Assembly (NCBI GenBank): GCA_043718025.1
Contig: JAYSWN010000164.1
Location: 1 to 22,237, forward strand
Direction of reading: 5' to 3'
DNA: 22,237 nt
DNA from: Pseudomonadota bacterium
GTDB lineage: Bacteria; Bdellovibrionota; FAC87; UBA2466
This document shows positions 7,748 to 17,556 of this stretch, in pieces. The translations under genes and the position numbers were made by a program. The notes beneath the pieces are model-generated. The model saw nothing but the letters and a program-made list of their open reading frames with translations, ran no database searches and was not told the DNA's origin. Within the stretch, counting starts at the first letter, position 1; the number at the start of each line of letters is the position of its first letter.

Positions 7748-8140
7748 TTAACGTTTGGAGAACTGGAATTTCTTACGCGCGCCTTTTTGGCCGTATTTCT
7801 TACGTTCCTTCATGCGGGAATCGCGGGTAAGTAACCCTTCCTTTTTTAAAACCTTACGAAAGTCTGGGTCGATCTTAAGAAGAGCGCGGCTAATGCCGTG
7901 ACTCATCGCGCCAGCTTGCGCGGCGATTCCGCCTCCATCTACCAAACCATAAACTGTGTAATTTTTAAGTTTTTCGGTGAGTACCAAGGGTTTAGCGACA
8001 ACCGCTCGAAGCACTTCTCCGGGAAAATACTGCTCCAGCGTGCGCTCATTTACATGAATGTCGCCTTCGCCAGGCACCAAACGGATACGGGCAATTGCTG
8101 TTTTGCGACGTCCCGTTGCTTGAATCATTTCCGTTGCCAT
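7748..8140 (-). CDS. rpsI: 30S ribosomal protein S9
   Basis: [26 protein letters not shown] and [28 protein letters not shown]. Confidence 0.99.
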
Positions 8141-8832
8141 TATGCTTCGCTCCCTTGTTGCAGACCAATGTTGCTCAACTTAACCACTTCAACCTGCTGC
8201 GCCTTATGAGGATGCTCTGCACCCGCGTAGACTTTCAGCTTTTTGTACCAAGTGCGGACCAATGGCCCCTTCGATTTTGGCAACATGCCCCAGACCGACC
8301 ATTCGATTAAACGCTCAGGATTGGTATCCCGAACTTCACCGGCCGTATAGCTTTTGATACCGCCTGGATAATTTGTATGGTGGTAATAGGTCTTGTCTTC
8401 CCACTTTTTACCGGTGAGCTTTACTTTCTCGGCGTTGATCACAACGACGAAGTCGCCGGTGTCAGTATGCGGAGTGTAGGCTGGTTTGTCCTTGCCCATC
8501 AACATGGTGGTCACCGCAGTACTCAGCCGGCCAAGAGGAATGCCCTCGGCGTCGACCAGCTTCCATTTAGCGACAACAGAACCAGTTTTTGCAAACGTGG
8601 TCTGTACCGCTAAAGGCGCCCGCTTACCGCCGGCGTGCAACACTCGCTTAATTTTTTTAGTTTTAGCCTCGATTTTTTCGGCTGCCCGAGCCGCGGCAAC
8701 GGCCGCCGTTACCATTTTGGGAGCCTTTTTCGGAGCCCTGTCTTGAACTTTGGAAACCTTAGTTTCCTTGGCTTCGGGGGCTGCTTTTTTCGAAACTTTC
8801 TTAACTTCTTTGTCTTCTTTTTTGTCTGGCAT
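8140..8832 (-). CDS. rplM: 50S ribosomal protein L13 with long N-terminal extension
   Basis: Core [60 protein letters not shown] overlap with rpsI. Confidence 0.97.
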
Positions 8833-14687: not shown

Positions 14688-14951
14688 TTACTGATCAGCC
14701 GCAGCCGATTTTTCGGCGGCGGCTTTTTTCATTTTTGGGATCTTCTTGCTGCCGCGGCCTTCGGGTTTCAACATAAATTTATCATTGTGTTCAGCATGCT
14801 CGTGCCCTTCACTAAGAGGATCGCCTACTTGCTTGGCGGTTTTGCTTTGCTTGTGCTCACAGTCTTTGTTGCCGCAGTCGCCGTGGGGACAGGCTAATGC
14901 CAAATTGGCGGCGAAGATAAAGGTAGCAAATAGAACAAGCGGCAGTTTCAT
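14688..14951 (-). CDS. Small secreted Cys/His-rich protein (87 aa)
   Basis: GGAG 5 nt before ATG 14951. Signal peptide MKLPLVLFATFIFAANLALA, then CPHGDCGNKDCEH...HEHAEH. Confidence 0.7.
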   Translation of the reverse strand: MKLPLVLFATFIFAANLALACPHGDCGNKDCEHKQSKTAKQVGDPLSEGHEHAEHNDKFMLKPEGRGSKKIPKMKKAAAEKSAAADQ

Positions 14952-15018
14952 TTTGACTCCTGCTCCCACCTTAGCGAAAGCCGTTTGGCTTTTCAAAAAA
15001 GTTTTTTCGGTTGAGTGG

Positions 15019-15081: not shown

Positions 15082-15522
15082 CTATTTGGGGTCTAACGGC
15101 AGATACATTCGTTGTCGCCTTTTGCCGTGGTTGGGGCGCAGGATTTCGATCTTTTCGCTACCTGGGTTGGCGACGGCGCGAAAGAGTTCGCCTGTGCCGT
15201 CAGCGGTGGCCATTGATGTATCGCCCACGCGGGCGATCACGTCTCCTTTCTCCAAGCCAATTCGGCTCCAGGCGGTGCCGGGGTCGATGTCTTGCACCAG
15301 TAACCCCTCACGCTTGATGTCATTGGGGTAGGAGACCAAGCGCGCCTGCGTGGCTAACTCTGAGACGTTTGTATCCGGAGTTAAAGTAGCGGTGCCTTTT
15401 TTTACGTCAGTAACGGGTGTTTCTGTCACTTTAGTTTCTGCTTTTGGGTTGGGCGAAGTCGTACACCCCATGACGACCACGGCGGCGGTAACCAACGCGG
15501 TGAGAAGCGATGAGTTTTTCAT
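15082..15522 (-). CDS. Lipoprotein with a single PDZ domain
   Basis: Lipobox-like VVMG|C, Thr/Pro-rich linker and PDZ pattern GLLVQDIDPGT...IGLEKGDVIARVG. Confidence 0.75.
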   Translation of the reverse strand: MKNSSLLTALVTAAVVVMGCTTSPNPKAETKVTETPVTDVKKGTATLTPDTNVSELATQARLVSYPNDIKREGLLVQDIDPGTAWSRIGLEKGDVIARVGDTSMATADGTGELFRAVANPGSEKIEILRPNHGKRRQRMYLPLDPK

Positions 15523-15654
15523 AAGAACCTTTCGGGTTAAGAGGAATCGGTTGTGAGTAAGGACGAAGCACCCTCAAATTAGTGATGAATCAAAAGTTGC
15601 GGAAAAAATGCGATACAATAACCGCTGATTCATTCACTTACACAAAGGACGACA

Positions 15655-15774
15655 ATGAAACGCACCCTGTTTTTCGCAATTTTGGTGGCTTTCGGGTTGG
15701 TATTGACCTCATTCATTATTCAAGCCTGCGGCAGTAACTTACCGTTGGTGACTTTGAAAGGGGCCGGAGTATGA
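15655..15774 (+). CDS. Mini-lipoprotein (39 aa; absent from the ORF track)
   Basis: AAGGA SD at 15645-15649. Translates as MKRTLFFAILVAFGLVLTSFIIQA|CGSNLPLVTLKGAGV*. The stop overlaps the next start (ATGA, 15771-15774). Confidence 0.7.
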   Translation: MKRTLFFAILVAFGLVLTSFIIQACGSNLPLVTLKGAGV

Positions 15775-16397
15775 AGCGGCTACTCTTTGTTTTTGGCATG
15801 CTAACCGCGGTGTCTCCCGCTTTTTCAGTCGGCACGGTTAATGCGGGTACGATGAAATTTAAAGTCTACAAATTCGCCGTTTCGGCCAGCGTTGCCTGCA
15901 CTTCTCCGATCGAGATTTTTAGCGATGCGGCGGGTGTGGAGCAAGACATGGTCACCGGACCTACGTTTGGTTCGGGACGGTTGGCGGCCGGAAGTTATCC
16001 TTGCGTCATGGTGGAAATGTCGAAGGTCATTCAAACCAGCGCCGCAACTACCAGCGCGGGTTGCTCGGCGGGTGTAACGTTTAACGACGTGATCTGTCAG
16101 GACACCACGCAGCTGTCGCAGACTATCGCCGGGGTTGGTTTGACGTGCTCGGGCGGAGTCGCCAACGATCAACACGTAACCCTTTTCATTACGACGATAT
16201 CGGCGGGCACGAGCGGCGCACGCGCGTTGCTTCCTCCGACTTCGGAGACCGACACCACGTCCGGTTTGAAACTGACCACGCCGTTCGTAGTCACCGCGGC
16301 GGGTAAAACGGGAACCTTAACCGTAACCACCACTAACTTTCTTACCCCCGGGGTAGCGACGTGTTCTACTAATGCGCCGACGTTTTCGTTTCTGTAG
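15771..16397 (+). CDS. Secreted Thr/Ser/Cys-rich beta-type hypothetical protein
   Basis: GGAG upstream, signal peptide MKRLLFVFGMLTAVSPAFS, six Cys, strand-rich. Followed by a terminator. Confidence 0.8.
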   Translation: MKRLLFVFGMLTAVSPAFSVGTVNAGTMKFKVYKFAVSASVACTSPIEIFSDAAGVEQDMVTGPTFGSGRLAAGSYPCVMVEMSKVIQTSAATTSAGCSAGVTFNDVICQDTTQLSQTIAGVGLTCSGGVANDQHVTLFITTISAGTSGARALLPPTSETDTTSGLKLTTPFVVTAAGKTGTLTVTTTNFLTPGVATCSTNAPTFSFL

Positions 16398-16421
16398 TTG
16401 TTATATTACGTAGTGATAAAT

Positions 16422-16458
16422 TGGCTCCGGGGCTTTCGGCCGCGGGGCCATTTTTTTT
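16422..16458 (+). terminator. Rho-independent terminator
   Basis: TGGCTCCG-G-GGC-TTTCG-GCC-G-CGGGGCCA stem-loop followed by T8. Confidence 0.85.
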
Positions 16459-16488
16459 GGCGAGTCGGGGTAGGCCGGGACTGAAGGC

Positions 16489-17556
16489 CTACTCAATCTT
16501 CAGCATCAACTGTTCGGGGTAATTCTCGTCTACCAGATTGCCCATTGAGATACCTAACAAGCGAACGGGCCGTAAACGCGCTTGCCTCGTGGTGATCAGT
16601 AGGGCGAGCGCCACTTGAGTGATCACCGAGGCTAAAGCCGTGGGCGTAGCAAGCGTGCGACTACGGGTGAGGGTAGTGAAATCGTGGTAACGAATTTTAA
16701 GGGTCACGGTTAGCCCACGGTGGGCGATGCGGGTGAGCGCCTGCGACACTTCACCCGACAACTCTTCCAATACCTCGGTTAAAGTTTTGATATCCGCCGT
16801 ATCTTTTTCAAAGGTGGTTTCTGAACCGCGGCTTTTTGGTTGGCGATCGGACTGGACCGGGCGGCTGTCCAGGCCAAAGGAAAGGCCGTGGAGAAATCTG
16901 CCGAAGCTTCCTAGACGGCGCACCAGATCTTCGGCGGTGAGCTTTCGCAAGTCGGCGGTGGTCAGCAGTCCCATGCCCTGCATTTTTTTTGCGGTGGCGG
17001 GACCCACCCCCCAAAGTTTTTCAACGGGTAGCTTTTCAACGAATCGGGGCACTTCGGCCGGGGTAATTACGAAAATTCCGTTGGGCTTTCTTAAATCGCT
17101 GGCAACTTTGGCAAGAAATTTATTGGGTGCCACACCTGCCGACGCCGTGAGTCCAAGCTCATTTTGAATTCGGGCCCGGATCAACTCGGCCAGGCGAGTG
17201 GCGGAGCCTTGGGCAAACTTATTCGTGGTCACGTCTAAGTACGCTTCGTCGAGCGAGAGCGGTTCCACCAGGTCAGTGACGTCAAAAAAAATGGCGCGAA
17301 TTTGTCGACTCACCTCTTTATATTTGGAAAATTGGGGCGTGACAAAAATGGTAGCCGGGCAGAGCTTCAACGCATTTCGTGCTGACATGGCGCTACGGAT
17401 GCCAAAGCGGCGGGCCTCATAAGAGGCCGAAGCCACCACCCCGCGGCCTGAAGGGCTTCCCCCCACCACCACGGGAAGCCCCTTGAGTTCAGGGCGGTCC
17501 CGCTGTTCTACCGACGCATAAAAGGCGTCCATGTCGATGTGGATGATTTTGCGCAC
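16489..17556 (-). CDS. dinB: DNA polymerase IV
   Basis: IIHIDMDAFYASVE, ASYEARRFG, SLDEAYLD, NKFLAKVASD and VRLLGIS. GTG start. Confidence 0.97.
   Translation of the reverse strand: MRKIIHIDMDAFYASVEQRDRPELKGLPVVVGGSPSGRGVVASASYEARRFGIRSAMSARNALKLCPATIFVTPQFSKYKEVSRQIRAIFFDVTDLVEPLSLDEAYLDVTTNKFAQGSATRLAELIRARIQNELGLTASAGVAPNKFLAKVASDLRKPNGIFVITPAEVPRFVEKLPVEKLWGVGPATAKKMQGMGLLTTADLRKLTAEDLVRRLGSFGRFLHGLSFGLDSRPVQSDRQPKSRGSETTFEKDTADIKTLTEVLEELSGEVSQALTRIAHRGLTVTLKIRYHDFTTLTRSRTLATPTALASVITQVALALLITTRQARLRPVRLLGISMGNLVDENYPEQLMLKIE

Follow-up and report, generated by a model that had tools for sequence, protein, structure and literature searches.

The locus examined here raises the question of why a very short lipoprotein gene should run directly into the gene of a secreted protein that has its own, different signal peptide, given that lipoprotein anchoring normally operates in cis, with one chain carrying one lipid. 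The locus lies in the window, the whole stretch of 22,237 nucleotides that was analysed, which is contig C73 of a 4.14-Mb Bdellovibrionota assembly. The initial annotation had suggested that the short product becomes a lipopeptide whose strand-like LVTLKG segment completes a beta-sheet of the secreted partner and tethers it to the membrane. The features of the locus, with the basis for each, are as follows.

15645..15649, + strand: AAGGA, a Shine-Dalgarno-like (SD-like) word for the small ORF, 5 nt 5' of the ATG (sequence)
15655..15774, + strand: small lipoprotein ORF (anchor peptide gene), 39 aa, ATG start (sequence; homologues upstream of 43/44 split partners; pN/pS)
15655..15726, + strand: predicted lipoprotein (SPII) signal peptide, residues 1-24, ending IQA (sequence)
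15727..15729, + strand: Cys25, predicted lipidation site (sole invariant alignment column)
15748..15765, + strand: predicted anchor-strand motif V-T-L-K-G-A (phi-x-phi-x-G-[AS]) (motif counts; strand 21-30 in the fused model)
15757..15769, + strand: AAAGGGG / GGAG, SD-like for the partner, within the final codons of the small ORF (sequence)
15771..16397, + strand: secreted partner, 208 aa, six conserved Cys, predicted transthyretin-like beta-sandwich without its first strand (sequence; models; single copy in the genome)
15771..15827, + strand: predicted non-lipoprotein (SPI) signal peptide of the partner, ending A-F-S (sequence; motif at the matching place in 34/40)
about 16421..16459, + strand: terminator-like hairpin and U-run closing the two-gene unit (folding energy, shuffles)

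The 39-codon ORF of the initial annotation is confirmed on the sequence, with its SD-like word, MKR n-region, hydrophobic region spanning residues 5-22, and lipobox-like IQA|C at Cys25, and the predicted mature product is the 15-mer first proposed. The textbook lipobox reads [LVI][ASTVI][GAS]C, from which the window lipobox departs at -2 (Gln), with QG|C, QS|C, and QA|C recurring among homologues. The n-region, h-region, and lipobox Cys by which bacterial lipoproteins are recognised are present in 42 such small ORFs, as judged by our own heuristic filter; the Cys is the single invariant column of their alignment, and SD-like words precede 29 of the 42 homologues. Within the window's genome, 17 short ORFs with ATG, SD, and lipobox pass the filter, and the strand motif is terminal in one of these, the window ORF itself; a small ORF with the strand motif exceeds chance expectation. 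The description of the ORF as unannotated holds for function only, because it is already a called, unnamed gene in a public collection. One sequencing-run contig covers the locus with no differences, possibly being the window's own source and hence not independent.

Six cysteines mark the 208-aa partner (Cys43, 78, 98, 109, 126, and 198), which is single copy in the assembly and belongs to a family without a name that comprises 530 clusters at 50% identity. No PDB sequence match was found for the family, no Pfam or NCBIfam family at cut-off for peptide or partner proteins, and no match in plasmid and viral databases. A small-residue -3/-1 type motif occurs at the matching signal-peptide place in 34 of 40 split partners. 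Both the six-Cys protein and the ATGA overlap of the small ORF stop with its start (15771-15774) are present as claimed; the -4 overlap recurs in 7 of 42 pairs, with other gaps ranging from -1 to +67 nt. The assignment of an SD to the partner holds in part, as GGAG (15766-15769) lies 1 nt from the ATG and AAAGGGG (15757-15763) is better spaced; 33 of 42 split partners have their own SD. The terminator said to close the unit is found as a hairpin of -23.8 kcal/mol (z -3.0; 2 of 200 shuffles equally good) followed by a U-run, in a terminator scan that by itself is not above chance (2 found against 2.1 expected). No sigma-70 promoter was found at the locus. The two-gene unit stands alone, since it is flanked by a divergent PDZ lipoprotein gene at 15082-15522 (- strand) and by a convergent, putatively DinB-like gene at 16489-17556. 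The divergent gene encodes a small lipoprotein whose PDZ match (E 7e-4) falls below the cut-off.

Examining homologues reveals two forms of the gene. An initial protein search returned 27 homologues, nine of them lipoproteins of 226-246 aa and 18 of them SPI-type proteins of 202-216 aa. The nine long forms present a lipobox Cys, a few polar residues, a TVTLKG-like stretch, and a linker before the core, and the 18 short forms have an ordinary signal peptide directly joined to the core; LVTLKG of the small ORF corresponds to the stretch missing from the short-form proteins. A profile search of 401 Bdellovibrionota genomes gave 74 matches in 61 genomes, from which a census of 72 genes was drawn: four fragments (L070, L074, L075, and a contig-edge match in G166) were left out, L002 was used instead of its duplicate L008, and L003 and L004, on two further contigs and the latter cut at its 3' end, were added. 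After the lipobox filter had missed five genes belonging to one genus, it was loosened a single time, to accept Arg/His at -1. Single fused lipoproteins with a phi-x-phi-x-G strand after the lipobox Cys account for 28 of the 72 genes, and under the same loosened filter a small lipobox ORF lies within 200 nt upstream of 0/28, two of which have <500 nt of flank. The other 44 genes, the window's included, are SPI-type without the strand and come from 40 genomes with seven family codes. A small lipobox ORF, typically ending in the strand motif, lies directly upstream of 43 of these 44; it is complete in 42, ending -4 to +67 nt from the partner start and giving mature lengths of 14-37 aa, and in L042 it is present and cut by the contig end. 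The sole split partner without its own upstream peptide is the first of two tandem genes at L037, where the peptide gene lies between the two. Two checks proposed with the initial annotation, conservation of a small lipobox ORF upstream of homologues and the existence of single fused lipoproteins among them, thus both came out positive, the 28 fused genes bearing a TLKG-type strand. The genomes are related, so that counts overstate independence, and no P value is attached to the census because kin are not independent. A metagenome scan gave two loci and a genome scan one further (L005-L007); L005 and L007 were rejected as family members, being CTP-synthase false positives, and L006 lies on the same contig as L005.

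The strict motif phi-x-phi-x-G is found in 34 of the 42 small peptides (7% of shuffles) and in 23 of the 28 fused N-termini, with the peptides ending 2-5 residues past the motif Gly. Five of the misses among the peptides end ITIRMG; in one genus (L035, L041, L043, L050, L052), this strand occurs together with an unusual lipobox that has Arg at -1, as MSR|C, MTR|C, or ISR|C. Outside the strand motif, the peptide sequence is free to vary. Purifying selection acts on the small ORFs, most strongly on their final ten codons: pooled over 13 sister pairs from the tree, pN is 0.35 versus a pS of 0.76 for the small ORFs (uncorrected, with pS near saturation) and 0.20 versus 0.69 for their last ten codons. 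The gap between small ORF and partner takes all three values modulo 3 (8, 13, and 21 of 42), so that neither read-through nor a conserved frameshift can explain the arrangement. The signals of covariation between strand and core are weak, with top Z values of 5.2 and 4.8 against 10.6 within the core (107 paired rows), and a peptide profile search of the 401 genomes detects generic lipoprotein signals in 357, being unspecific below its top rows. Linkers from strand to core in the fused forms are mostly 15-45 aa long, making the covalent link a loose one. Internal SPI-like sites were considered as a general feature of these linkers and rejected, being not enriched (39/67 against 50% in shuffles). 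Long fused linkers with an amphipathic, signal-peptide-like segment and an AxA-like end just before the core occur in L063, L066-L068, and L071, and a few linkers look signal-like (L063, L071, P0043, P0073).

Fused and split states interconvert repeatedly. A tree built from 71 core domains, which omits L004 and whose root is not inferred, shows seven changes of state; at least three of these seven changes are forced by starred branches, and a single change is allowed by 0/200 bootstrap trees. The fused gene L020 is nested among split genes with starred support, and the GTDB homologue nearest to the window gene on the tree, L002, is fused (support 100/100). Among the 27 close proteins there are three state changes, with the window protein grouping with SPI-type proteins at modest support.

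Structure prediction places the motif within the fold, which is modelled as one domain of about 185 aa (pTM 0.84-0.85). In the model of the fused homologue P0009 (pLDDT 90.7), residues 21-30 form a strand (pLDDT 95). In the model of the partner alone (pLDDT 91.3), segment 65-72 is not a strand and 179-185 is shortened, a difference that fits a position of the missing strand between these two segments; the two models are of different proteins that are 53% identical. Both models resemble transthyretin-like sandwiches. The best fold match is MbnP (PDB 7l6g; Z 5.5, rmsd 4.5 A, 154 aligned, 11% identity; Foldseek E 6e-3), and several type V pilins match the fused model over the whole domain with Z 3-4.3; these matches indicate topology only, because Z is below the tool's guide of 8. 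Alignments with the fused model start at residue 10 of transthyretin, 29 of MbnP, and 30 of the FimA prepilin, and those with the partner alone at residues 20, 53, and 44, respectively. The motif is predicted to be the first strand of a transthyretin-like sandwich, absent from the partner alone, in agreement with the original placement of LVTLKG in the partner's sheet, since the fused model has an integral first strand there and the partner model lacks it. The partner C-terminus carries a conserved P-x-F-x-F strand.

Beyond the observed architecture, shared motif, selection, and repeated fusion and fission, the preferred reading, to which we assign a probability of about 0.75, is that the two genes are two halves of one lipoprotein, the lipidated peptide filling the partner's empty strand groove and forming a non-covalent membrane tether. 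The peptide likely clips into the partner as its missing strand because it carries the N-terminal segment of the one-piece relatives. Of the beta-sandwich, the partner would contribute all but the first strand, which the small ORF would supply together with the lipobox. The peptide would be processed by Lgt/LspA, and the partner would be exported via Sec/SPI and form three disulfides, with assembly in the periplasm after separate export; completion of the sheet by the peptide would recreate the fused lipoprotein minus its covalent linker. Anchoring is probably at the outer membrane, as 34 of 42 peptides have Gly and one has Asp at residue +2. Surface or periplasmic binding or adhesion is the most likely reading of the predicted fold for the role of the partner.

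Comparison with known systems clarifies what is shared and what differs. In chaperone-usher pili, an incomplete Ig-like beta-sandwich is completed in trans by a chaperone or by the strand of the next subunit, and the initial annotation had drawn its analogy from this donor-strand complementation. The analogy stands insofar as the strand is missing from the partner, but the proposed donor would here be a free-standing lipopeptide of 14-37 residues, unlike chaperone-usher donors, and the lipidated anchor strand of type V pilins is the better analogy. The type V pilins of Bacteroidia (FimA, Mfa1, Mfa2; PDB 6jzk, 5nfi, 4qb7, 3sy6) are transthyretin-like sandwiches in which a lipidated Cys precedes the first strand, a lipidated anchor strand in sheet 1 that keeps the protein at the membrane and is cut off at Arg46 of FimA (PMC13655056, available text, which also mentions the chaperone-usher mechanism); a like arrangement may exist here. 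The anchor strand of type V pilins lies in cis, is cut by gingipain, and is displaced by a C-terminal donor strand as the two-domain (NTD + CTD) pilin polymerises, whereas in the window and at 42 other loci the strand has a gene and a signal peptide to itself, and the partner is one disulfide-rich domain from a different phylum. No type V pilus operon (stalk, anchor, and tip pilins) was found in the flanks examined, tandem copies occurring in three genomes only, and no conserved cleavage motif was found in the fused linkers, where a type V pilin has a protease site in its beta1-beta2 loop. Identity with type V pilins was rejected on the single domain, the strand as a separate gene, and the lack of a pilus operon in the flanks; by analogy, the peptide likely works like the type V anchor strand.

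MbnP (PDB 7l6g) and DUF4382 (PF14321) are likewise transthyretin-like proteins, the fold match to MbnP being weak at Z 5.5. DUF4382 matched 5 of 137 members (best E 0.01) and gave 0 matches for the window protein; neither the window protein nor any of the 137 members reaches the gathering score, and membership was rejected. One Atlas cluster, with DUF4382 on 31% of its members, scored 0.92, and remote kinship with DUF4382 is plausible. To our knowledge, there is no split form of the MbnP or DUF4382 families. MbnP pairs with an MbnH-type di-haem cytochrome c peroxidase (PMC3621798, available text); membership of the MbnP family was rejected, with no Pfam/NCBIfam MbnP match in 137 members and no MbnH-type neighbour cluster in the flanks. 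LptM (YifL) is a very small lipoprotein whose short conserved motif binds the separately exported LptD (bioRxiv 10.1101/2025.01.03.631273, available text). The motif of LptM, C-G-L-K-G-P-L-Y-F in E. coli, begins with the Cys and serves to stabilise a barrel of the outer membrane, whereas the motif described here stands 7-18 residues after the Cys, at the peptide end, corresponds to the N-terminus of the fused homologues, and belongs with a soluble partner. Like many unrelated lipoprotein models, the NCBIfam LptM model touches some of the peptides (7 of the 42, best E 1.3e-4); LptM identity was rejected, the Cys-starting motif being absent and the window peptide having no NCBIfam match.

Alternatively, the lipopeptide could bind in the same groove but act as a transient carrier, bringing the partner to the outer membrane or the cell surface before being displaced; the partner would then be released or would polymerise through strand exchange, like a type V pilin already cleaved at the gene level. 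The fold matches do include type V pilins (Z 3.6-4.3), whose lipidated anchor strand is cut and then displaced in the course of assembly (PMC13655056, available text), and the partner ends in the P-x-F-x-F strand. Small outer-membrane barrel-like genes, counted by eye, flank about 11 of 44 split loci against 0 of 28 fused loci, a hint of a surface role; they adjoin L017, L025, L033, L037, L040, L046, L048, L053, L076, L077, and L003, which are kin-clustered, and Pfam OMP_b-brl is above cut-off for one of three such genes tested and weak for another. The partner, however, is a single domain without a second sandwich bearing a long donor strand, and its C-terminal strand aligns to the fold's own last strand, immediately after the conserved Cys198. 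The flanks hold no anchor, tip, or protease genes, there is mostly one copy per genome, and internal cleavage-like motifs show no enrichment in fused linkers (39/67 against 50% in shuffles); a transient carrier is judged unlikely.

A ribosomally made lipopeptide signal or natural product, with the partner as its receptor or binding protein and no structural completion, had been offered as an alternative at the outset and is very improbable. The lipoprotein pathway can be co-opted by ribosomal peptides (PMC13056109, available text), yet no modifying enzyme, exporter, kinase, or regulator is conserved within flanks of about 1.5-2 kb, signalling domains are missing from the partner, and the fused forms hold in cis the very strand outside which the peptides vary freely. 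The reading as a broken, frameshifted, or mis-assembled single lipoprotein gene, with the small ORF as a relic, finds a point in its favour in the fused nearest GTDB homologue (L002, 100/100) but is scarcely credible and largely refuted, the initial annotation having already argued against a simple frameshift, by the split form in 40 genomes and seven family codes, by gaps that range from -4 to +67 nt and cover all three frames, by partners with their own signal peptide and, in 33 of 42, an SD, by purifying selection on the small ORFs, by one split pair that is identical to named records of Bacteriovorax sp. PP10 whose locus tags are adjacent (WP_323577958.1, 40 aa; WP_323577957.1, 237 aa), and by the closest protein homologues of the window gene, which are also SPI-type.

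The two-gene design, for which a non-covalent tether formed by two halves of one lipoprotein is the preferred reading, is real, conserved, and apparently undescribed. The initial annotation knew of no description of such a pair, and none was found in the available text of the open-access literature; the same material yielded no precedent for a design divided between two genes or for its repetition in three families. Since type V pilins already display the chemistry of a lipidated anchor strand, the design might on a stricter view count as a new variant. If true, the reading would provide a new way of attaching proteins to the bacterial envelope, with anchor and cargo as separate genes carrying different signal peptides and their products coming together again through completion of the sheet; localisation predictions for these families would change, and overlooked small ORFs would gain a defined role. 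The natural fused versions offer a built-in control, a named isolate record carries the pair, and a 15-residue lipid tag capturing its partner could serve surface display.

The same layout recurs in further families. Scanning the window's genome shows that, of its 17 short lipobox ORFs, one other lies upstream of a secreted protein, here called family 2 (the window's family being family 1), which occurs there as follows.

G000:C66, L111:2552-2692 and L111:1501-2541, - strand: family 2 in the window's genome, small ORF and partner
G000:C39, L128:1091-2430, + strand: family 2, second copy in the same genome

Family 2 partners are secreted proteins of 345-400 aa with no Pfam match and no detected similarity to family 1. 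The family comprises 19 loci in 17 of the 401 genomes, with a small lipobox ORF upstream in 19/19 that ends in the motif [LMF]P-x-x-[IVL]-[SAG]. Family 3 (L140-L145; about 385 aa, secreted, Cys-rich) was found through the peptide profile, and a small lipobox ORF lies upstream in 6/6 substantial loci, five ending KF (mostly G-x-KF) and one KG, with two weak matches not classified. Family 3 may be a distant relative of family 1, since its N-terminus recalls family 1. No fused forms of families 2 and 3 were found among the proteins examined, and strand complementation in these families is for that reason extrapolated. The odds slightly favour a general plug-in anchoring in Bdellovibrionota, in which lipopeptide tags of about 40 codons with family-specific C-terminal motifs (phi-x-phi-x-G; [LMF]P-x-x-[IVL]-[SAG]; ...G-x-KF) pick up proteins that are secreted on their own and hold them at the membrane. 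If true, membrane attachment would be modular, evolutionarily reversible, and potentially releasable, and many predicted soluble periplasmic proteins would be membrane-tethered by overlooked small genes.

Several minor observations accompany these families. Family 1 was found in none of the 53 genomes of the large family code f8, where families 2 and 3 occur in three genomes and one genome, respectively. A typical family-1 anchor peptide gene at L131 (G166:C62:12439-12540, + strand) lies upstream of an unrelated collagen-like lipoprotein and may be an orphan or work in trans; peptide-like ORFs also stand at contig ends in L090 and L101. L136, a distant branch of family 2, has the peptide end LPRIAL. 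At L134 (G245:C30:47245-47334, - strand), a small lipoprotein ORF ending VVPAPQMK lies upstream of another secreted protein, a possible fourth family. In G000:C216, a 55-aa lipoprotein-start ORF (L079:2311-2478, - strand) is followed by a 298-aa ORF (1298-2194, - strand) without a signal peptide; it was rejected as a split pair because it looks like a broken ordinary lipoprotein gene, and the short lipobox ORF of L137 was rejected because it has no partner. Elsewhere in the window, positions 14688-14996 (- strand) hold a short ORF that looks secreted, has many His and Cys residues (CPHGDCGNKDCEH, HEHAEH), and gives no Pfam match, and positions 8140-8832 (- strand) hold what is presumably a ribosomal protein L13-like gene with an extra Lys/Ala-rich N-terminal stretch of ~85 residues.
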